Shown: piece after piece, positions 8,646 through 18,001 of the stretch
Numbering within the stretch: the stretch's first letter is position 1
How the letters are laid out: each line of letters starts with the position of its first letter
Assembly (NCBI RefSeq): GCF_003790525.1
Contig: NZ_CP033635.1
Direction: 5' to 3' (one strand)
Source of the DNA: Escherichia coli
GTDB taxonomy: Bacteria > Pseudomonadota > Gammaproteobacteria > Enterobacterales > Enterobacteriaceae
DNA length: 64,000 nucleotides
The notes under the pieces: model-generated
Told to the model about the DNA's origin: nothing
Seen by the model: the letters and a program-made list of their open reading frames with translations, nothing else
Database searches by the model: none
Program-made: the position numbers and the translations under genes

Positions 8646-9899
8646 ATGTCAGGATCCAACACTGCAATCAGCCGTCGTCGTTTACTGCAAGGCGCGGGTG
8701 CCATGTGGCTATTGAGCGTAAGTCAGGTCAGCCTGGCTGCGGTCAGCCAGGTCGTGGCGGTGCGCGTCTGGCCTGCGTCCAGCTACACCCGCGTGACGGT
8801 AGAATCTAATCGTCAGCTGAAATATAAGCAGTTCGCGTTGAGTAATCCTGAACGCGTGGTGGTGGATATCGAAGATGTAAACCTGAACTCGGTGCTCAAG
8901 GGGATGGCTGCGCAAATCCGCGCTGACGACCCGTTCATCAAGTCGGCGCGCGTCGGGCAATTTGACCCGCAAACCGTACGTATGGTTTTTGAATTAAAGC
9001 AAAACGTAAAACCGCAGCTGTTTGCCCTTGCGCCGGTCGCCGGGTTTAAAGAGCGTCTGGTGATGGATCTCTATCCTGCCAATGCACAGGATATGCAGGA
9101 CCCGCTGCTGGCGCTGCTGGAGGATTACAACAAAGGCGACCTCGAAAAGCAGGTGCCGCCAGCACAAAGTGGTCCACAACCGGGTAAAGCTGGGCGGGAT
9201 CGTCCGATTGTCATTATGCTTGACCCTGGTCACGGTGGCGAAGACTCCGGTGCGGTGGGGAAATACAAAACACGCGAAAAAGACGTAGTATTGCAAATAG
9301 CTCGCCGTCTGCGCTCTCTGATCGAGAAAGAGGGCAATATGAAGGTGTACATGACGCGCAATGAAGACATCTTCATTCCGTTGCAAGTGCGCGTAGCAAA
9401 AGCCCAGAAACAGCGTGCTGACTTGTTTGTCTCTATCCATGCCGACGCCTTTACCAGTCGCCAGCCGAGCGGTTCCTCGGTGTTTGCGCTCTCAACCAAA
9501 GGCGCAACCAGTACTGCGGCAAAATATCTGGCACAAACCCAGAACGCCTCGGACTTGATTGGTGGCGTAAGCAAAAGCGGTGACCGCTATGTCGACCACA
9601 CTATGTTCGATATGGTGCAGTCGCTGACCATTGCTGACAGCCTGAAGTTTGGTAAAGCGGTGCTGAATAAGCTCGGTAAAATCAACAAGCTGCATAAAAA
9701 TCAAGTTGAACAGGCCGGGTTTGCCGTACTAAAGGCACCAGATATTCCCTCCATTCTGGTCGAAACGGCGTTTATCAGTAACGTTGAGGAAGAGCGTAAA
9801 CTGAAAACGGCGACTTTCCAGCAGGAAGTTGCGGAGTCTATTCTTGCGGGAATTAAAGCGTATTTTGCCGATGGGGCGACGCTGGCGAGAAGGGGATAA
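8646..9899 (+). CDS. amiC: N-acetylmuramoyl-L-alanine amidase AmiC (Tat-exported)
   Basis: 417 aa from [18 protein letters not shown] (twin-arginine signal), Amidase_3 domain; the ORF-track start 30 codons upstream is rejected. Confidence 0.9.
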
Positions 9900-9931
9900 T
9901 GTTTTTATTTATTCAATGAATTTATATTTCG

Positions 9932-9959
9932 TTGAATAGATAACATTTACCTGAATATT
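9932..9959 (+). promoter_or_regulatory. Putative sigma70 promoter of the PTS island operon (-35 TTGAAT, -10 AATATT, 16-bp spacer)
   Basis: Hexamer match read by eye in the AT-rich region upstream of the RAT/terminator leader; weak evidence. Confidence 0.25.
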
Positions 9960-9996
9960 AGACGCTGGTTTTGTGACTGATGTCGGATATTTGAAT

Positions 9997-10019
9997 GTCG
10001 GCTTGAAAAATAAGCCGAC
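9997..10019 (+). terminator. Hairpin gtcggctt-gaaaaat-aagccgac downstream of amiC (possible amiC terminator)
   Basis: 8-bp perfect stem seen in sequence; no strong U-tract follows. Confidence 0.3.
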
Positions 10020-10071
10020 CATCTCTTTAATTAAGCACAATTCCGTGTAATGTATACGCATTAGTTAATCA

Positions 10072-10099
10072 TCTTGTAACTGTTAAATCAGGCAAGGCA
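10072..10099 (+). promoter_or_regulatory. RAT-like element (ribonucleic antiterminator target) overlapping the 5' arm of the leader terminator
   Basis: cttgtaactgttaaatcaggcaaggca resembles the BglG/SacY RAT consensus as I recall it (TTGTTACTG..AAAGCAGGCAA); overlaps the terminator stem directly upstream of a PRD antiterminator gene. Confidence 0.5.
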
Positions 10100-10145
10100 A
10101 TGTTTGAAGTAATCATTACTTCTGACGTGCCTTGCCTTTTTTTTT
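10090..10145 (+). terminator. Rho-independent terminator in operon leader (10-bp stem aggcaaggca/tgccttgcct with inner stem gaagtaat/attacttc, then T9)
   Basis: Perfect inverted repeat followed by 9 T residues, ending 11 nt before the antiterminator ATG. Confidence 0.6.
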
Positions 10146-10156
10146 GGAGCCATGAA

Positions 10157-10981
10157 ATGATCATCGAAAAAGTCATGAACAATAATTGTGTACAGGCATC
10201 GATGAATGGACAGGAGGTTATCATTTCTGGGCCTGGCGTCGGTTACAACAAAAAATATGGAATGTCGGTCCCTGAGCATCCGGCTAACCGGATTTTTTAT
10301 GTCAGAAATGAACAAAAAAATAAACTCTACAAATTGATTGAACATGTGGATATTGAGTATGTTTTTGTTGCCGAAAAAATAGTGCAATATGCGGAGAACA
10401 ATCTCGAAAAAAATCTCAATCCATCGCTACTATTGATTCTTGCTGATCACATTTCGAATGCAATATCCCGAGTCGCTTCAGGCATACAAATTAATAATGT
10501 TTTCCTTGATGAAATCAAAGCGTTGTACAAAGCAGAGTATGCGATAAGTCGCGATGCATTAACTATCATTAATGAGCAATTCAGCGTTCAACTTCCTGAT
10601 GATGAGATTGGTTTTATAGCATTGCATATTTTAAATAATTATGAAAATTCAGTTGATTATGAATCAGTACGGATTATTGAGTTGTCGCAAATAATCACGG
10701 GGCTTATTGAAGTTGTTTATAACAGAAAGGTGGACAGAAGTTCATTTAATTATTCCAGGTTCATGATACACCTTAAATATTTTTCAAGTCGCGTATTATG
10801 TAATGAAAAGATAAAACAAAAAGATATTGGTGACATCTATGAGCAGTTTCTTGAGAAAGACATCCTGTTACAGCGCGCAATTCATGAAATTGAACGGTAT
10901 CTGTATGCCACTTTTAAATATGAATTAATTTTAGAAGAAAAACTATATCTCTCAATTCGTACCAAAGTATTAATGGACTAA
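10157..10981 (+). CDS. BglG/LicT-family PRD-domain transcription antiterminator
   Basis: 275 aa from ATG 10157 (MIIEKVMNNNCV..., GGAG 7 nt upstream); N-terminal CAT RNA-binding motif KVxNNN and PRD-like segments; the ORF-track start 10100 lies inside the terminator hairpin. Confidence 0.8.
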   Translation: MIIEKVMNNNCVQASMNGQEVIISGPGVGYNKKYGMSVPEHPANRIFYVRNEQKNKLYKLIEHVDIEYVFVAEKIVQYAENNLEKNLNPSLLLILADHISNAISRVASGIQINNVFLDEIKALYKAEYAISRDALTIINEQFSVQLPDDEIGFIALHILNNYENSVDYESVRIIELSQIITGLIEVVYNRKVDRSSFNYSRFMIHLKYFSSRVLCNEKIKQKDIGDIYEQFLEKDILLQRAIHEIERYLYATFKYELILEEKLYLSIRTKVLMD

Positions 10982-11012
10982 TTATATATAACATTTATAT
11001 GAGATAACCCAC

Positions 11013-12593
11013 ATGAAACAAAAGAAAGCCTGGAGTTTTTTTCAGAGCCTGGGAAAGGCATTCATGTATCCCATTGCTCTGCTAAGTGTATGTGGCATGA
11101 TGCTAGGGCTGGGAAGTGGTTTAGCCAGTGATGATATGGCAAAGTTAATTCCATTTCTGGCTATTCCAATAATTAAAACCATACTTGATTTCATTGTTAG
11201 TCTTGGTTTGTTTGCCTTTGTTAATTTACCTGTATTGTTTGCGATAGCGATTCCCTTAGGATTATTAAAAGATAAAGAGGATAAAGCCTATGGTGCTTTT
11301 TCTGGCTTAATTGGTTTTATGGCGATGCATCTGGGAACGAACTTTTATCTTAAACAGCACGACTTATTGGTCGCTGCTGACCAAATGTCGACACATGGGC
11401 AAACCATCATTCTGGGGATCCAGTCCTACAATACCAGCGTGTTAGGGGGAATTGTTGCTGGGTTATTAGTCGCCAGCATGTATAAAAAGATCGTTAATTT
11501 ACGCATTCCTGAATCATTAGGTTTTTATAGCGGCCCACGTCTGGTGCCTATCATTACACTGATTGTGATGAGTGGATTTGGTCTGATCATCCCTTTTATC
11601 TGGCCGCCGTTTTTCAATCTTTTCATGCTCATTGGCCACTGGATTTCAACTTCCGGTCCTGTTGGCTATTTTTTCTATGCAGTCGCCGAACGCGTGACGA
11701 TACCTTTTGGTTTAAATCACCTGGTGACGTCAGTTTTCCGCTTTACCCCCATCGGCGGATCGGCAGTGATCGGCGGCGAAGAGTATTATGGCACCCTGAA
11801 CATGTTTATGGCGTACGTCAAAGAGAATGCGGTCATTCCGCTGGATTTGGCGGGGAAAATGGAACAGGGCAAACTGATGATTCAGTATGGTCTGGCTGGT
11901 GCCGCGCTGGCGATGTATCGCACTGCTCATGCTCAAAACAGAAAAGCTATCAAAGCATTGCTTATTTCCGGGGTGCTTACAGTCATTATTGGCGGCGTCA
12001 GCGAACCGATTGAGTTTCTGTTCTTATTTGTCAGTCCACTGCTGTTTGTCTTCCATGCATTTATGAATGGATTCGCCAACATGGTCTTGCCATATATGGG
12101 CGTGAAGATGGGATTTACTGGCGATCTGATTCAATTTATTAGCTTTGGCGTATTGCGTGGCACAAGAACAGGTTGGCCAATAGCGGTGTGTGTCGAAGTG
12201 GCCTATTTCTTTATTTATTACTTTGTGTTCCGTTGGACTATTCTCAAATTTAACCTGATGACGGTAGGCCGTGAAGAGTCCAGTCCTGTCACGCTGAACG
12301 CTCATGAGGATACGGCTATAGCGGATATCCCAACTCCTGATAAATCAGAGCTGCAAGCGGCGGAGCAGATGGTTAAGGCACTTGGTGGTAAAGAGAATAT
12401 TAAGTCACTGGATAATTGCGTAACTCGTTTACGTTTAACAATCGCAGATATGGGATTGCTTGACGAGGCTGCAATAAAAAGAGCCGGCGGAATTGCGGTT
12501 GTTAAACTTGATCAAAATACCCTACAAGTCATTATCGGTACTAAAGTCATCGCCTTGCGTCGGGATATGGATAACTACATGGGGATATGCTGA
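11013..12593 (+). CDS. PTS glucose/glucoside-family EIICB permease (no EIIA domain)
   Basis: 526 aa polytopic membrane protein with C-terminal EIIB motif NCVTRLRL; similar in architecture to MalX/PtsG-type EIICB. Confidence 0.85.
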   Translation: MKQKKAWSFFQSLGKAFMYPIALLSVCGMMLGLGSGLASDDMAKLIPFLAIPIIKTILDFIVSLGLFAFVNLPVLFAIAIPLGLLKDKEDKAYGAFSGLIGFMAMHLGTNFYLKQHDLLVAADQMSTHGQTIILGIQSYNTSVLGGIVAGLLVASMYKKIVNLRIPESLGFYSGPRLVPIITLIVMSGFGLIIPFIWPPFFNLFMLIGHWISTSGPVGYFFYAVAERVTIPFGLNHLVTSVFRFTPIGGSAVIGGEEYYGTLNMFMAYVKENAVIPLDLAGKMEQGKLMIQYGLAGAALAMYRTAHAQNRKAIKALLISGVLTVIIGGVSEPIEFLFLFVSPLLFVFHAFMNGFANMVLPYMGVKMGFTGDLIQFISFGVLRGTRTGWPIAVCVEVAYFFIYYFVFRWTILKFNLMTVGREESSPVTLNAHEDTAIADIPTPDKSELQAAEQMVKALGGKENIKSLDNCVTRLRLTIADMGLLDEAAIKRAGGIAVVKLDQNTLQVIIGTKVIALRRDMDNYMGIC

Positions 12594-13768
12594 TGGATGT
12601 TTTTAATACTCCTATTTCCCGCAAAGGAACATATTGTACCCAATGGGACTTTTGCGAGGACAGATTTGGTGTAAAAGATGTATTACCATTCTCTATTTCA
12701 GATATGGATCTTCCGATACCAGACGCTATCACCAGAGCATTAAAAAAACGTCTGGAACACCCGATTTTAGGGTACAGCCGTTGGCAGCATGATGACTATC
12801 TGAATGCGATAGTCAATTGGTATCATCAACAATATAAAACTGAAATCAAACCAGAATGGATCACCTATAGCCCAAGCGTGATGTACTCCATTGCTAAAGC
12901 AATAGAGTTATTGACATCGCATGGTGATAATATTCTCGTTTTTACACCTGTCTATAATGCATTTTTTGATATAATTAAACATAGCGAGAGAAATATTCTG
13001 ACAGCCTCTTTGATTATAAAAAATGAGGGGGGCTACGCTATCAATTGGCAAGATTTTGATCTTAAGATTCAAAGCGCAAAGATGGTGTTATTATGTAATC
13101 CTCATAACCCGACAGGAACAGTCTGGTCGGAAGAAGAACTGCATAAAATCGCTGCAAGCTGTACAAGGCATAATGTCTGGTTATGTTCAGATGAAATCCA
13201 TAGTGATTTTGTTTTTAATCGTAGCTTTACATCCGCGCTTAAAATAAAAAAAGAAAAAGTAGTAGTATTTAACTCGATATCGAAAACATTTAATGTTCCT
13301 GCACTAACAGGATCGTATATGATTTCAACTGACGATAATTTTAATCATAAGTTCAGAACGATATCGAGGTATCGCGATTTTGTAAACTCCCCATCAGTAC
13401 TGAATATAATTGCAACTATTATTGCCTATAACGAATGTGAGGGATGGTTAAAGTCATTAAAGGCACATATTGCCTCTAACATTCAATTCACCCAGCAGTA
13501 TCTGAACGAAAACACTCCAGAATTGATCGTAAGGCCAGCTGATGGTTGCTATTTTTCGTGGATAGATTGCTCTGCTATTGGTTATCCCTTTGATGAATTC
13601 TACAGTCGATTAATTCATGAAGGCAAAGTGGGCATTATGGCGGGGAATGTCTATGGAACGGAGGGGGAGGGCTACCTTCGTCTGAACCTGGCCTGCGGTC
13701 GAGAAAAATTATATATGGGGCTTACGCGTCTTGCGAGTGTAATTAAAAATATTAATCAAGGAAAATAA
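12587..13768 (+). CDS. MalY/PatB-family PLP-dependent aminotransferase / C-S beta-lyase
   Basis: 393 aa; N-terminus (TYCTQWDF..LPFSISDMDLP) parallels E. coli MalY (GTWCTQWDY..LPFTISDMDF); overlaps the EIICB stop by 7 nt. Confidence 0.8.
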   Translation: MLMDVFNTPISRKGTYCTQWDFCEDRFGVKDVLPFSISDMDLPIPDAITRALKKRLEHPILGYSRWQHDDYLNAIVNWYHQQYKTEIKPEWITYSPSVMYSIAKAIELLTSHGDNILVFTPVYNAFFDIIKHSERNILTASLIIKNEGGYAINWQDFDLKIQSAKMVLLCNPHNPTGTVWSEEELHKIAASCTRHNVWLCSDEIHSDFVFNRSFTSALKIKKEKVVVFNSISKTFNVPALTGSYMISTDDNFNHKFRTISRYRDFVNSPSVLNIIATIIAYNECEGWLKSLKAHIASNIQFTQQYLNENTPELIVRPADGCYFSWIDCSAIGYPFDEFYSRLIHEGKVGIMAGNVYGTEGEGYLRLNLACGREKLYMGLTRLASVIKNINQGK

Positions 13769-13770
13769 AA

Positions 13771-14367
13771 ATGAACAGCACGGATCTTATCCATCTCATT
13801 AAACATTTTATGCGTAACGAACATAAAGCAGTTGAAGAAGTTATTGATTCCCCCCTTTCGGAGGTCGCAAATTTAATTAAAGTATTACAGTCTTGTCAGG
13901 GGAAAGTTGTTTTTATTGGTGTCGGTAAGTCCGGTATTATTGCCCGAAAACTCGCCGCAACATTTGCCAGCACTGGAACTCCCTCGTTTTTTGTTCACGG
14001 TACGGAAGCGGTACACGGCGACCTTGGAATGGTGGCGAAAGACGATGTTGTTATTCTTATTTCAAACAGTGGTGAGACGGCGGAAATCCTGGCGACACTG
14101 CCTAGTCTGAAAAAAATGGGTAATTATTTGATCTCTTTTACACGCAGTCATCACTCATCGCTTGCGATAAGTTGTGATTTATCCGTTGAAATTCCCGTAA
14201 AAAGTGAGGCGGATAATTTAGGTTTAGCGCCGTCATGCTCATCAACAGTCGTTCTGGTTGTTGGTGATGCGGTGGCGCTTGCGCTCTCCGAATTGAAAAA
14301 GTTTACTCGTGCTGATTTCGGCTTATATCATCCAGGAGGTGCGCTCGGTATTAAAGCAAACTCATAA
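13771..14367 (+). CDS. SIS-domain sugar-phosphate isomerase (single SIS domain, KdsD/GutQ-like)
   Basis: 198 aa with GVGKSGIIARKLAATFASTGTPSFFVH, the SIS phosphosugar-binding motif. Confidence 0.75.
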   Translation: MNSTDLIHLIKHFMRNEHKAVEEVIDSPLSEVANLIKVLQSCQGKVVFIGVGKSGIIARKLAATFASTGTPSFFVHGTEAVHGDLGMVAKDDVVILISNSGETAEILATLPSLKKMGNYLISFTRSHHSSLAISCDLSVEIPVKSEADNLGLAPSCSSTVVLVVGDAVALALSELKKFTRADFGLYHPGGALGIKANS

Positions 14368-14429
14368 TTTCAAAATATAAATACAGTAACCGGTCACGCC
14401 ATCTTTTGGGGTGGCGTTCTTTGAAGTGA

Positions 14430-15386
14430 GTGTCAGCTATGAAAAATGTTCTGGTCACCGTCCCCAGCTTTTCAGCACGCTGTGTTTCCGCCAGCAAGTT
14501 GCTAAGAGAGAATAATTTTAATCTTATTATTAAGAATAATGTGGAGCATCTGCTTAAATCAGAATCCACTGCATTACGAGAATCTATTTGCGCGGTCATC
14601 GCCGGAAAAGATTGTTATCAGGCGGACACGCTATCATTGCTGTCTGGTGTGAAAATAATATCGAGATTCGGGACGGGGATAGACAATATTGATCTTCGTG
14701 CGGCACAGCAATCCGGTATTGTTGTCAATAATGCGGTTGGGATTAATTCAAATGCGGTTGCGGAATTTATCATTGGACTTATCTTCGCGAGCATGAGAAA
14801 TATCCCCGGTAGCTATCATGCGATGCAAAATGGTTATTGGGGCGAGTCGCATGGCTGCGAGTTACAAGGTAAACGTATTGGCCTGCTTGGCTACGGCAAT
14901 ATTGGCAAAACACTGGCGAAAAGGTTATCTGGTTTTGATGTTGAGCTTTTAGCTTTTGACAAACAACCCGATTTCCAGGCCGCAGGCAAAGATGGAGTTC
15001 AGTTCGTATCAATTGAAGATATCTTTATGCAGTCTCATGTCATCATCGTTCTTTTGCCATTTTCTCCGGAGCTGGAGAACTTCATTAGTCATAAATATTT
15101 GTCGATGATGCGCAATGGTGCTCTGATCATCAACGCCGCAAGGGGAAAGTTGCTGGATGAGGGTGCTTTACTTCAGGTAATTGAAGAACGAAATGTTTTT
15201 GCAGCACTGGATGTGTTTAGCTCTGAACCGCTAGCGCAATTTAGCCCATTGCTACATGCCAAGAATATCATTACAACGCCGCATATTGCGGCCGCCACCG
15301 TTGAGTCATACCAGCAAACCGGGATATACGTTGCCCAGTCGATAATTGATTACTTCGCAGGAAGGGAGATAAAAAACGTGCTGTGA
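14430..15386 (+). CDS. D-isomer-specific 2-hydroxyacid dehydrogenase family protein (NAD-binding)
   Basis: 318 aa; Rossmann GxGxxG (LLGYGNIGK) and catalytic-domain motifs typical of the SerA/PdxB/GhrA family. Confidence 0.75.
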   Translation: MSAMKNVLVTVPSFSARCVSASKLLRENNFNLIIKNNVEHLLKSESTALRESICAVIAGKDCYQADTLSLLSGVKIISRFGTGIDNIDLRAAQQSGIVVNNAVGINSNAVAEFIIGLIFASMRNIPGSYHAMQNGYWGESHGCELQGKRIGLLGYGNIGKTLAKRLSGFDVELLAFDKQPDFQAAGKDGVQFVSIEDIFMQSHVIIVLLPFSPELENFISHKYLSMMRNGALIINAARGKLLDEGALLQVIEERNVFAALDVFSSEPLAQFSPLLHAKNIITTPHIAAATVESYQQTGIYVAQSIIDYFAGREIKNVL

Positions 15387-15410
15387 GTTCAGCTAAGGAA
15401 TATTTCAGGT

Positions 15411-15448
15411 ACAAAAAAACCGCAATTTGTGAAACACATTGCGGTTTA
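15411..15448 (-). terminator. Rho-independent terminator downstream of the tRNA-fMet cluster
   Basis: On the minus strand a hairpin accgcaatgtgtttcacaaattgcggt followed by TTTTTTT, directly 3' of the last tRNA. Confidence 0.6.
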
Positions 15449-15464
15449 TCAGCATCATAAGTGT

Positions 15465-15541
<77 letters not shown>

Positions 15542-15575
15542 TCACCGTACTGCTTTTACTTCATCAAATTTTGAT

Positions 15576-15652
<77 letters not shown>

Positions 15653-15685
15653 TCACCGTACTGCTTTACTTCATCAAATTTTAAT

Positions 15686-15762
<77 letters not shown>

Positions 15763-15970
15763 TCCGTGGATGCGCACTATACTCTGCTCGCGTTTTCATG
15801 CAACCTTTTTTTTACCCCGATCACGGATTTGGCATGATTTTGAACAAAAACAAATCACTAAAGCCTATTTTTTGTGCAAAATTTGCGTCGGGGAGAGGCT
15901 GCTCATTTCATTAAACGCGGCGGTTTGTTATCTTCGTTGCGCCTTATTTTTTAACCTGAAGAAGAGAACA

Positions 15971-17068
15971 ATGAAAGGACGTTGGGTAAAGTACCTTCTT
16001 ATGGGCACGGTTGTGGCAATGCTTGCCGCCTGCTCTTCCAAACCAACCGATCGCGGACAGCAATATAAAGACGGGAAATTTACCCAGCCTTTCTCTCTGG
16101 TGAACCAGCCAGATGCCGTTGGCGCGCCGATTAACGCCGGTGATTTTGCCGAGCAAATTAACCATATCCGTAATTCGTCACCGCGTCTGTATGGCAACCA
16201 GAGTAATGTTTATAACGCGGTGCAAGAGTGGCTGCGCGCAGGCGGTGATACCCGCAATATGCGCCAGTTCGGCATTGATGCCTGGCAGATGGAAGGTGCC
16301 GACAACTATGGTAACGTGCAGTTTACCGGTTATTACACGCCAGTAATTCAGGCGCGCCATACCCGCCAGGGCGAGTTTCAGTATCCGATTTACCGTATGC
16401 CGCCAAAACGTGGTCGTCTGCCGTCTCGTGCGGAGATCTACGCGGGGGCATTGAGCGATAAATACATCCTCGCTTACAGCAACTCTCTGATGGATAACTT
16501 CATTATGGATGTGCAGGGTAGTGGGTATATCGACTTTGGTGATGGCAGTCCGCTTAACTTTTTCAGCTATGCAGGGAAAAACGGTCATGCCTATCGCAGC
16601 ATTGGTAAGGTGCTGATCGACCGTGGCGAAGTGAAAAAAGAAGATATGTCGATGCAGGCGATTCGTCACTGGGGTGAAACACACAGTGAAGCCGAGGTTC
16701 GCGAGCTGCTGGAACAGAACCCGTCTTTCGTCTTCTTTAAACCGCAATCTTTTGCTCCGGTGAAAGGGGCAAGTGCGGTGCCGCTGGTTGGTCGCGCTTC
16801 AGTTGCGTCCGATCGTTCCATTATCCCGCCTGGTACAACCTTACTGGCAGAAGTGCCGCTGCTGGATAATAACGGCAAATTTAACGGTCAGTACGAACTA
16901 CGGCTGATGGTGGCGTTGGATGTCGGTGGTGCAATCAAAGGCCAACACTTCGATATTTATCAAGGTATCGGGCCGGAAGCCGGACACCGCGCAGGTTGGT
17001 ACAACCACTATGGACGTGTTTGGGTGCTGAAAACCGCCCCGGGCGCAGGTAACGTCTTTAGCGGCTGA
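15971..17068 (+). CDS. mltA: Membrane-bound lytic murein transglycosylase A (lipoprotein)
   Basis: 365 aa from MKGRWVKYLLMGTVVAMLAACSSK (lipobox LAAC); the ORF-track version starts at a TTG inside the tRNA and is rejected. Confidence 0.9.
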   Translation: MKGRWVKYLLMGTVVAMLAACSSKPTDRGQQYKDGKFTQPFSLVNQPDAVGAPINAGDFAEQINHIRNSSPRLYGNQSNVYNAVQEWLRAGGDTRNMRQFGIDAWQMEGADNYGNVQFTGYYTPVIQARHTRQGEFQYPIYRMPPKRGRLPSRAEIYAGALSDKYILAYSNSLMDNFIMDVQGSGYIDFGDGSPLNFFSYAGKNGHAYRSIGKVLIDRGEVKKEDMSMQAIRHWGETHSEAEVRELLEQNPSFVFFKPQSFAPVKGASAVPLVGRASVASDRSIIPPGTTLLAEVPLLDNNGKFNGQYELRLMVALDVGGAIKGQHFDIYQGIGPEAGHRAGWYNHYGRVWVLKTAPGAGNVFSG

Positions 17069-17144
17069 TGTGTTATTCTGTATACCGTTTTGACGGATAC
17101 GACAGGGTGAGGGATAACCTCGCCCTTTTTAATTCTGAGGTGCT

Positions 17145-17951
17145 ATGTCTGTGGTAATTAGTGATGCATGGCGTCAGCGTTTTGGTGGCACAGCGCGTCT
17201 GTATGGTGAAAAAGCATTGCAACTGTTTGCTGACGCGCATATTTGTGTGGTTGGTATCGGTGGTGTCGGTTCCTGGGCGGCGGAAGCGCTGGCGCGCACG
17301 GGGATTGGCTCAATCACGCTTATCGATATGGATGATGTGTGCGTCACCAATACCAATCGGCAAATTCATGCCCTGCGCGATAACGTTGGGCTGGCAAAAG
17401 CGGAAGTTATGGCGGAGCGTATTCGCCAGATTAACCCGGAGTGCCGTGTAACGGTGGTGGATGATTTCGTGACGCCGGATAACGTAGCGCAGTATATGAG
17501 CGTGGGTTATTCGTACGTGATTGATGCCATTGATAGTGTACGGCCCAAAGCGGCGCTGATTGCTTATTGTCGGCGCAATAAAATCCCACTGGTCACAACC
17601 GGTGGCGCGGGTGGGCAGATTGACCCGACGCAGATTCAGGTTACCGATCTGGCGAAAACGATTCAGGACCCGCTGGCGGCGAAGTTGCGTGAGCGCCTGA
17701 AAAGCGATTTTGGCATAGTGAAAAACAGTAAAGGTAAGCTCGGCGTGGATTGCGTGTTCTCTACCGAAGCGCTGGTGTACCCGCAGTCAGATGGCACGGT
17801 CTGTGCAATGAAAGCTACGGCGGAAGGGCCAAAGCGGATGGATTGTGCATCTGGATTTGGTGCCGCGACGATGGTGACCGCCACCTTTGGTTTTGTTGCG
17901 GTTTCTCATGCGCTGAAGAAGATGATGGCGAAAGCGGCGCGTCAGGGGTAA
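17145..17951 (+). CDS. tcdA: tRNA threonylcarbamoyladenosine dehydratase (ThiF/MoeB-like E1 fold)
   Basis: 268 aa, GxGGVGS nucleotide-binding motif; synteny with csdAE. Confidence 0.85.
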   Translation: MSVVISDAWRQRFGGTARLYGEKALQLFADAHICVVGIGGVGSWAAEALARTGIGSITLIDMDDVCVTNTNRQIHALRDNVGLAKAEVMAERIRQINPECRVTVVDDFVTPDNVAQYMSVGYSYVIDAIDSVRPKAALIAYCRRNKIPLVTTGGAGGQIDPTQIQVTDLAKTIQDPLAAKLRERLKSDFGIVKNSKGKLGVDCVFSTEALVYPQSDGTVCAMKATAEGPKRMDCASGFGAATMVTATFGFVAVSHALKKMMAKAARQG

Positions 17952-18001
17952 ACAATCAGGTCGGATGCGACGCAAACGTCCTTTCCGACCCGGTTCTGTG
18001 C

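Follow-up and report, generated by a model that had tools for sequence, protein, structure and literature searches.

A stretch of 64,000 nucleotides from Escherichia coli (assembly GCF_003790525.1, contig NZ_CP033635.1; hereafter, the window), 100% identical to E. coli SMS-3-5 (NC_010498.1), carries between amiC (which ends at 9899) on the 5' side and the metZWV tRNA genes on the 3' side a cassette of five genes, encoding a BglG-type antiterminator, a phosphotransferase system (PTS) enzyme IICB (EIICB), a lyase, an isomerase and a dehydrogenase. The cassette corresponds to the c3405-c3410 block of strain CFT073 and bears the 'malX' PCR marker of a pathogenicity island (PAI). This block of PAI-metV is common to uropathogenic E. 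coli strains and SMS-3-5 (PMC2831201), and as late as 2026 the cassette was still counted among uncharacterised features in a paper on the genome of strain BEN2908 (PMC12928451). The leader of the first gene holds, on the + strand, a hairpin resembling a ribonucleic antiterminator (RAT; 10072-10097) that overlaps an intrinsic terminator (10090-10137), and these are followed by a U-tract, a ribosome-binding site and the antiterminator gene itself (10157-10981). We consider it very probable that these elements constitute a functional BglG/SacY-type antiterminator-controlled attenuator gating the five-gene PTS cassette. Of 5426 complete E. coli genomes, 1688 (31%) have the leader, each in a single copy, and in those genomes no annotated feature, RNA features included, lies under it. 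It is, then, an unannotated example of the BglG/SacY class of RAT-terminator switches with a non-canonical lower half; the mechanism itself is textbook and will not surprise a specialist.

An earlier note made from the letters of the window (the original prediction) had pointed to a string resembling the RAT consensus over the 5' arm of the terminator. This resemblance is confirmed here both by a core match of the bgl type and by the best match of an independent covariance model (CM). The string, cttgtaactgttaaatcaggcaaggca at 10073-10099, contains the core UUGUAACUG-N6-CAGGCAA, in which 15 of 16 positions agree with the bgl RAT core established by experiment in E. coli; the reference RATs were taken from the K-12 sequence (bgl t1, GGATTGTTACTGCATTCGCAGGCAAAACC; t2, GGATTGTTACCGCACTAAGCGGGCAAAACC), and their counterpart in the window is ATCTTGTAACTGTTAAATCAGGCAAGGCA at 10071-10099. 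The pattern TTGTNACTGN6CAGGCAA had a single exact match in the window, the next best sites carrying 2-3 mismatches, and by an arithmetic estimate 128 kb should contain about 1e-4 exact occurrences of a 15-base pattern. The conserved core, written as UUGUNACUG, a short loop and CAGGCAA, was also exact at 10074-10095 and unique in the window. When the pattern was loosened, its only exact matches were 10074-10095, the two bgl RATs and three sites in leaders or spacers of the licT locus of Clostridium tertium, while two licT leader sites of Thermoanaerobacterium showed it with one substitution. The CM, R1, was made exclusively from RATs of other operons, seven in total (t1 and t2 of bgl, three of C. 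tertium and two of Thermoanaerobacterium), and run with filters off; over both strands of the window (128 kb) it placed 10074-10095 first, with 16.4 bits and an E of about 0.02 on a rough calibration. Neither the pattern nor the CM search disclosed a second RAT in the window, and there was no second copy of the leader in the 1688 genomes. The second-best CM match (14.2 bits, E of about 0.08) was at 14931-14969, on the - strand and inside the dehydrogenase gene; its agreement was confined to the flanks GG.UUGUU and CAAAACC around a 24-nt insert, and it is probably a chance match. In a cmscan of 9000-18000 against Rfam 15, three tRNAs passed and nothing was reported at 10060-10150 even at E <= 10; to our knowledge, Rfam contains no RAT family.

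Folded alone with ViennaRNA, 10072-10097 has a free energy of -6.2 kcal/mol and the same topology as the two bgl RATs (-6.4 and -7.8 kcal/mol), that is, a 5-bp stem, an internal loop on the 5' side, a 3-bp stem and a hexaloop. The lower stem is formed by U10072·G10097, C10073-G10096, two U-A pairs and G10076-C10093, the internal loop by U10077, A10078 and A10079 opposite G10092, and the upper stem by C10080-G10091, a U-A pair and G10082-C10089, closed by the apical loop UUAAAU. With 10071 as position 1 of the RAT, the asymmetric upper internal loop (positions 7-9 opposite 22) under an apical stem of 3-4 bp was obtained with both ViennaRNA and RNAalifold, and the latter, applied to nine orthologues, returned the RAT as the sole consensus structure. 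The context is also that of a RAT, since the element lies 60 nt upstream of a gene with CAT_RBD and PTS regulation domains (PRDs), and an EIICB gene comes next.

The terminator was likewise found much as predicted, with a perfect 10-bp stem immediately before the BglG-type gene, formed by AGGCAAGGCA (10090-10099) and TGCCTTGCCT (10128-10137). The inner 8-bp stem that had been claimed stands only as a pair of inverted 8-nt arms, GAAGTAAT (10106-10113) and ATTACTTC (10115-10122); with one base between them, 7 pairs and a 3-nt loop are the most that can form. The outer and apical stems are connected by four more pairs (10101-10104 with 10124-10127), so that the whole consists of a GC-rich basal stem of 10 bp, these 4 pairs and an apical stem of 7 bp. 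The hairpin alone has -27.5 kcal/mol, and the minimum free energy of the 101-nt leader (-31.5 kcal/mol, z = -4.64) was not reached by any of 200 shuffled sequences. Downstream, the predicted T9 is present at 10137-10145, its first T being also the last pair of the stem, and the predicted ribosome-binding site follows directly as the Shine-Dalgarno sequence GGAG (10146-10149), 7 nt before the start codon and invariant in the orthologues. A stable GC-rich stem, a U-tract and conserved pairing (see below) identify the element as a Rho-independent terminator. A simple terminator scanner missed it because its limits on loop and stem exclude long interrupted stems; the same scanner flagged 10278-10293, inside the coding sequence, which is probably a chance match. 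The U-tract has 8-10 T in the aligned orthologous cassettes and E. coli alleles, with the sole exception of E. coli TUM13881. In this strain the tract has gone from 9 to 6 T and the antiterminator gene is frameshifted and annotated as a pseudogene; the weaker terminator might make up for the missing regulator, or decay might have produced both changes by coincidence.

We examined the leader outside E. coli. The five genes and their leader also occur in Citrobacter spp., in Atlantibacter hermannii and in metagenomic contigs; a contig scan with the antiterminator protein alone gave 5 loci, and one fragment of 57% identity (L013), with a degenerate leader and no translation corresponding to the query, was left out as unreliable. 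In the Citrobacter-like contigs L015-L017, the cassette lies between a gene of the LTXXQ family and a pair of RNase T-family exonuclease and RNase H genes. As cassette and leader are together at a chromosomal site different from that in E. coli, the leader is part of the operon and does not pertain to amiC. Leader and five genes form a mobile unit (L014-L017, metagenomic and Citrobacter-like; L009, L010 and L012). In L014, an IS1 transposase gene was seen near the cassette. Measured over nine distinct leaders, the proportion of variable columns was 3/26 (12%) in the RAT (10072-10097), 41-53% in the adjacent leader (10021-10071 and 10098-10129) and 83% further upstream (9957-10020), and 82% of the third codon positions of the antiterminator gene were variable. 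The terminator is conserved as a structure: in the nine orthologues 92% of its cells were paired, as compared with 33-56% in slid controls, both partners had changed in three pairs, among them G10097:C10130, which is A:U in Citrobacter and Atlantibacter, and the covariation score exceeded those of all 500 shuffles. In Atlantibacter the interior of the terminator is largely rewritten and yet remains a fully paired stem of 19 bp, and the hairpin was kept when the sequences were folded one by one. The G10097A change also preserves the basal pair of the RAT, which passes from U10072·G to U-A.

The two structures compete for the same bases. The 3' half of the RAT and the 5' arm of the terminator share 10090-10097 and, therefore, the two folds exclude each other. 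When the RAT was enforced, 7-8 terminator pairs beside the U-tract were lost and a residual hairpin remained at 10097-10130, leaving seven unpaired bases before the U-tract, and hence the terminator configuration is lost. Folding of the two conformations, one of the checks proposed with the original prediction, thus yielded mutually exclusive structures with a RAT as stable as those of bgl.

The protein encoded immediately downstream (274 aa; PRD-domain protein in the annotation of the Prokaryotic Genome Annotation Pipeline, PGAP) has the composition of the family. Pfam recognised CAT_RBD at residues 1-55 (2.7e-14) and PRD1 at 73-160 (1.6e-23), PRD2 was aligned to that of LicT over its full length, and the whole protein could be aligned to the LicT and GlcT structures in the PDB. 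His98, His157 and His205 correspond to His101, His160 and His208 of BglG, and the fourth histidine (His269 of LicT) is replaced by Arg268 here and by Asn in BglG. The protein thus has a CAT domain and two PRDs with phosphorylatable histidines. The best NCBIfam score was that of LicT (225.7, cut-off 300), followed by GlcT (178/320), BglG (104/322) and LacT (97/500); since all these equivalog cut-offs were missed, the protein is not an orthologue of the Bacillus subtilis antiterminators LicT, SacY, SacT or GlcT and represents a separate lineage. Its orthologues are at least 93% identical within Escherichia and 77-80% in Citrobacter and Atlantibacter, and beyond this group the full-length relatives (Clostridia, Thermoanaerobacterium) are at most 36% identical. 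Identity to BglG is only about 30% (PMC12928451).

On these grounds, and by analogy with characterised members of the family, the switch would operate as follows. By default, the nascent RNA would form the 10090-10137 hairpin with its U9 and polymerase would stop before the ribosome-binding site. In the presence of active antiterminator, a CAT dimer would bind 10072-10097 and sequester 10090-10097, so that the base of the terminator could not form, and transcription would read through into the antiterminator gene, a positive autoregulation, and then into the EIICB, lyase, isomerase and dehydrogenase genes. As in BglG and LicT, control would come from PTS phosphorylation: PRD1 (His98/His157) would be phosphorylated by the MalX-like EIICB while this is idle, which would keep the protein off, transport of the substrate would relieve this, and HPr would act on His205. 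The distance between U-tract and ATG is 11 nt, which leaves no room for a downstream promoter and, therefore, expression requires read-through. The spacer between the regulator and EII genes measures 31 nt and has no hairpin, and a scan of 10900-15500 found no credible or strong internal terminator; accordingly, one switch gates all five genes.

Where transcription begins can be placed less precisely. The block GTGTA..GT at 10045-10053 is conserved in the Escherichia, Citrobacter and Atlantibacter leaders and may hold a weak -10 hexamer, the candidate being TAATGT at 10048-10053 on the + strand (TANNGT in all orthologues); transcription starts somewhere in 10020-10065, and with this hexamer the start would be near 10060. 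Further upstream, at 9971-9987, there is a CRP-like half-site, TGTGA (at about 9973)-N6-TCGGA, the second half of which is poor and unconserved in other species. The terminator scanner also flagged a + strand hairpin at 9997-10019, GTCGGCTT...AAGCCGAC, with a poor T tail and 100 nt past the amiC stop, which is probably the terminator of amiC. In E. coli ES7 (locus L005, about 1370-2500), an IS5-like element, ISEc68, is inserted at TTAG (10061-10064 of the window), 8 nt upstream of the RAT; its transposase gene reads toward the operon and the leader is cut off from its native upstream region. This was seen in 1 of the 1688 genomes and, although it recalls the activation of bgl by insertion sequences (IS), it could equally inactivate the operon.

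Several observations weigh against a working attenuator. The gap between the terminator and RAT states is 11.6 kcal/mol, as compared with 6.4 for bgl t1 and 7.4 for t2. The terminator of BglG/SacY-family switches is described as always thermodynamically favoured, the choice being made co-transcriptionally with the help of the protein (PMC5393181, PMC3575810). There is no covariation within the RAT because the RAT does not vary, which leaves thermodynamics and analogy as the grounds for its fold. The CM aligned to it locally (positions 4-26), the E of about 0.02 is only roughly calibrated, the canonical basal stem and lower loop are absent from the RAT, PRD2 (184-251) was a weak Pfam match (E = 0.033), and a consensus scan upstream on the + strand found no convincing sigma-70 promoter. 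Some of these points could also be accommodated if the hairpin served constitutively as a terminator or insulator, or if the operon were silenced and cryptic like bgl, with the RAT-like string a non-functional relic that came along with the antiterminator gene and expression depending on other factors such as rare read-through, IS insertion or relief from H-NS. The region is AT-rich and horizontally acquired (GC 31-49% in the island and 31-40% around the leader versus about 52% in the flanks), no promoter is clear, the terminator is strongly dominant thermodynamically and one strain carries the IS5-like insertion described above. We nevertheless think this unlikely. A relic would not keep its variation at 3 of 26 columns against 82% at synonymous sites, the compensatory changes in the terminator also keep the RAT pairing (U10072 with either G or A at 10097), the antiterminator frame is intact in the examined E. 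coli alleles and orthologous cassettes but for the single frameshifted allele of TUM13881, and the IS is restricted to one genome.

The RAT of the malX cassette departs from the canonical ones in its lower half. It reads A1 U2 C3 ... A8 ... G26 G27 C28 A29. In canonical RATs, G1 and G2 pair with C28 and C29, and position 3 opposite 26-27 makes the lower loop; here the corresponding bases are A1, U2, C28 and A29, and the loop is closed by a C3-G26 pair. Because the basal pairs are impossible and C3-G26 is closed, the CM match was local and did not include positions 1-3 and 27-30. A helix at the base of the RAT, such as 10068-10071 paired to 10098-10102, was not conserved across the nine orthologues, among which RNAalifold found no conserved helix below U2·G27. 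In the complex of LicT, one CAT monomer contacts the basal stem and lower loop (PMC3105407). Positions 3, 8 and 26, which are published determinants of RAT specificity (PMC1635312, PMC3105407), are C, A and G here versus A, U and A in bgl, so that all three differ; within the core, orthologues vary at A8 alone, which Atlantibacter replaces by C. In the protein, the specificity residues are Pro26 (Arg27 in LicT, Ala26 in SacY, Pro26 in SacT) and Asn31 (Gln32 in LicT, Asn31 in SacY), and Tyr30 replaces Phe31 of LicT. These sequence differences suggest a private RAT/CAT specificity insulated from BglG. It is also conceivable, though we put it forward only tentatively, that they define a separate RAT/CAT class, with a 'half' RAT that keeps the upper recognition loop above a continuous 5-bp helix and a CAT with Pro26, Tyr30 and Asn31. 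If so, binding would be asymmetric or altered with respect to the symmetric two-loop clamp of LicT, in addition to being insulated from BglG in the same cell.

The same features bear on whether the RAT, being functional, could be served mainly by another BglG-family protein of the host, such as BglG itself. Its core is nearly identical to those of the bgl RATs and RAT/CAT cross-talk has been documented in Bacillus subtilis (PMC1635312). With different specificity positions, the basal stem missing, a CAT with its own Pro26/Asn31 combination, and a RAT and antiterminator gene that have travelled together into Citrobacter and Atlantibacter, such a service by BglG seems to us very improbable, and we favour the antiterminator of the cassette as the protein that would bind.

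When compared with known systems, the switch shares with bglGFB t1 the core UUGU-ACUG...CAGGCAA in the same organism, a RAT of similar stability that overlies the 5' arm of the intrinsic terminator preceding the antiterminator gene, and a regulator with the same three PRD histidines in which the fourth is missing. The bgl-t1-type architecture that had been proposed therefore holds for the overlap of RAT and terminator before the regulator gene. It does not extend to a second RAT and terminator (t2 of bgl, before the EII gene) or to a canonical basal stem and lower loop, the basal G1G2:C28C29 pairs of the bgl RAT being absent. Besides, the terminator is longer and relatively more stable than in bgl, and the EII belongs to the glucose/maltose family and has no EIIA, whereas that of bgl is of the beta-glucoside family. 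In lacking a second terminator before the EII gene, the layout is closer to nagY-nagE of Enterococcus faecalis than to bglGFB. In nagY-nagE, a single, autoregulated RAT/terminator with compensatory terminator changes lies in the 5' untranslated region before the antiterminator gene, and binding of NagY has been shown (PMC9981650); another characterised analogue has the same layout (PMC12591593). Both nagY-nagE and the malX cassette have a glucose-family EII gene directly after the regulator gene. They differ in that the NagY RAT resembles the consensus poorly, whereas the core is near-perfect here, in the phylum, in the three extra catabolic genes of the malX cassette, and in that binding is experimental for NagY and predicted for the malX cassette. 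LicT/licS-bglPH, SacY/sacB, SacT/sacPA and GlcT/ptsG of B. subtilis resemble the malX switch in mechanism and in how the hairpin is laid out around the upper loop, and Pro26 is as in SacT and Asn31 as in SacY (PMC3105407), but the lower loop is unlike the LicT/SacY/SacT type. At the LicT-type locus of C. tertium (L019), two of the three RATs have A8 (UUGUAACUG), so the variant is found among the closest relatives beyond the orthologue group (36% identical). In contrast to the RAT of the malX cassette, the C. tertium RATs keep the canonical GGA...AAACC base, and they are placed both before and after the regulator gene of an operon for a beta-glucoside EIIBCA and a GH1 enzyme. In two of the closest distant homologues (33-35% identical), another RAT-like motif, GG(T/A)TAGT(A/G)ATTG...CAAGCTAAACC, lies over a terminator (L018, 2860-2930; L020, 2890-2975), so that in that branch the RAT type tracks protein similarity loosely.

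The start of the antiterminator gene had been placed at 10157 rather than at the ATG at 10100, inside the hairpin, and this choice proved sound. It coincides with the start given by PGAP, positions 1-56 of the CAT_RBD model align to residues 1-55 from it, and GGAG-N7-ATG (10146-10159) is invariant in the orthologues. The ATG at 10100 is in frame with the gene and opens the mechanical open reading frame call, of which it is an artefact; since it is ACG or AGG in four orthologous leaders and has no Shine-Dalgarno sequence before it, we dismiss its use, either for a 19-residue N-terminal extension or for a leader peptide with ribosome-mediated attenuation, as hardly credible.

The remaining genes of the cassette are all on the + strand. 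The second (11013-12593) encodes a MalX-like EIICB of the glucose family (526 aa; 539 bits with NCBIfam TIGR02004, below the cut-off; PTS EIIC in PGAP), with the EIIB Cys469 within an NCVTRLR motif. Lacking an EIIA domain, it would depend on an EIIA of the host, which, by analogy with MalX and PtsG, is expected to be EIIA-Glc. It is followed by genes for a pyridoxal phosphate-dependent C-S lyase of the MalY/PatB family (12593-13768, 391 aa; 369 bits with TIGR04350, above the cut-off of 340, and so named by PGAP), a SIS-domain sugar-phosphate isomerase similar to KpsF/GutQ and reduced to the isomerase domain (13771-14367, 198 aa; NCBIfam and PGAP) and, as the last gene, an enzyme similar to D-2-hydroxyacid or phosphoglycerate dehydrogenases (14439-15386, 315 aa; NCBIfam and PGAP). 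In the 71-nt spacer between the isomerase and dehydrogenase genes, at about 14397-14420 on the + strand, ACGCCA...TGGCGT forms a small hairpin ahead of TCTTTG, for which the terminator scan made no call; its role may be that of a weak attenuator within the operon or of an element for mRNA processing or stability. Past the cassette, metZWV (15468-15762, - strand) comprises three identical genes for initiator-type tRNA-Met, convergent with the operon. A hairpin in between (about 15413-15447; ACCGCAAT...ATTGCGGT, with an A7 flank on the + strand) probably terminates the tRNA operon and may also end the cassette transcript. In B2 strains, a type VI secretion system cluster of about 30 kb lies between cassette and tRNA genes (PMC12928451); SMS-3-5 has the cassette alone, without that cluster.

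The operon, present in almost a third of the complete E. coli genomes as indicated above, is enriched among lineages of extraintestinal pathogenic E. coli (ExPEC). A single RAT/terminator gating five genes would offer an experimental handle on the inducer of a MalX/MalY-like pathway, and a second BglG-type switch in E. coli, apparently insulated from the first, could aid the study of how CAT/RAT cross-talk is avoided. A search of the open-access literature found no paper combining malX, antiterminator and uropathogenic; Gordon et al. 2015 reportedly looked for motifs resembling RATs in the genomes of K-12 and uropathogenic E. coli, and Lloyd et al. 2009 is said to cover the islands of CFT073. 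The 'malX PAI marker' PCR, on which very many epidemiological studies have relied, has its target in this operon. The primers RPAi-f and RPAi-r, whose sequences were confirmed in PMC12058657 (citing Johnson & Stell 2000), fall at 10858-10879 (+) and 11758-11779 (-), about 922 bp apart, and this classic ExPEC marker therefore consists of the 3' end of the antiterminator gene and the 5' part of the EIICB gene. In the window, RPAi-f has 1 mismatch and RPAi-r has 4, and the SMS-3-5 allele may amplify poorly with the latter.

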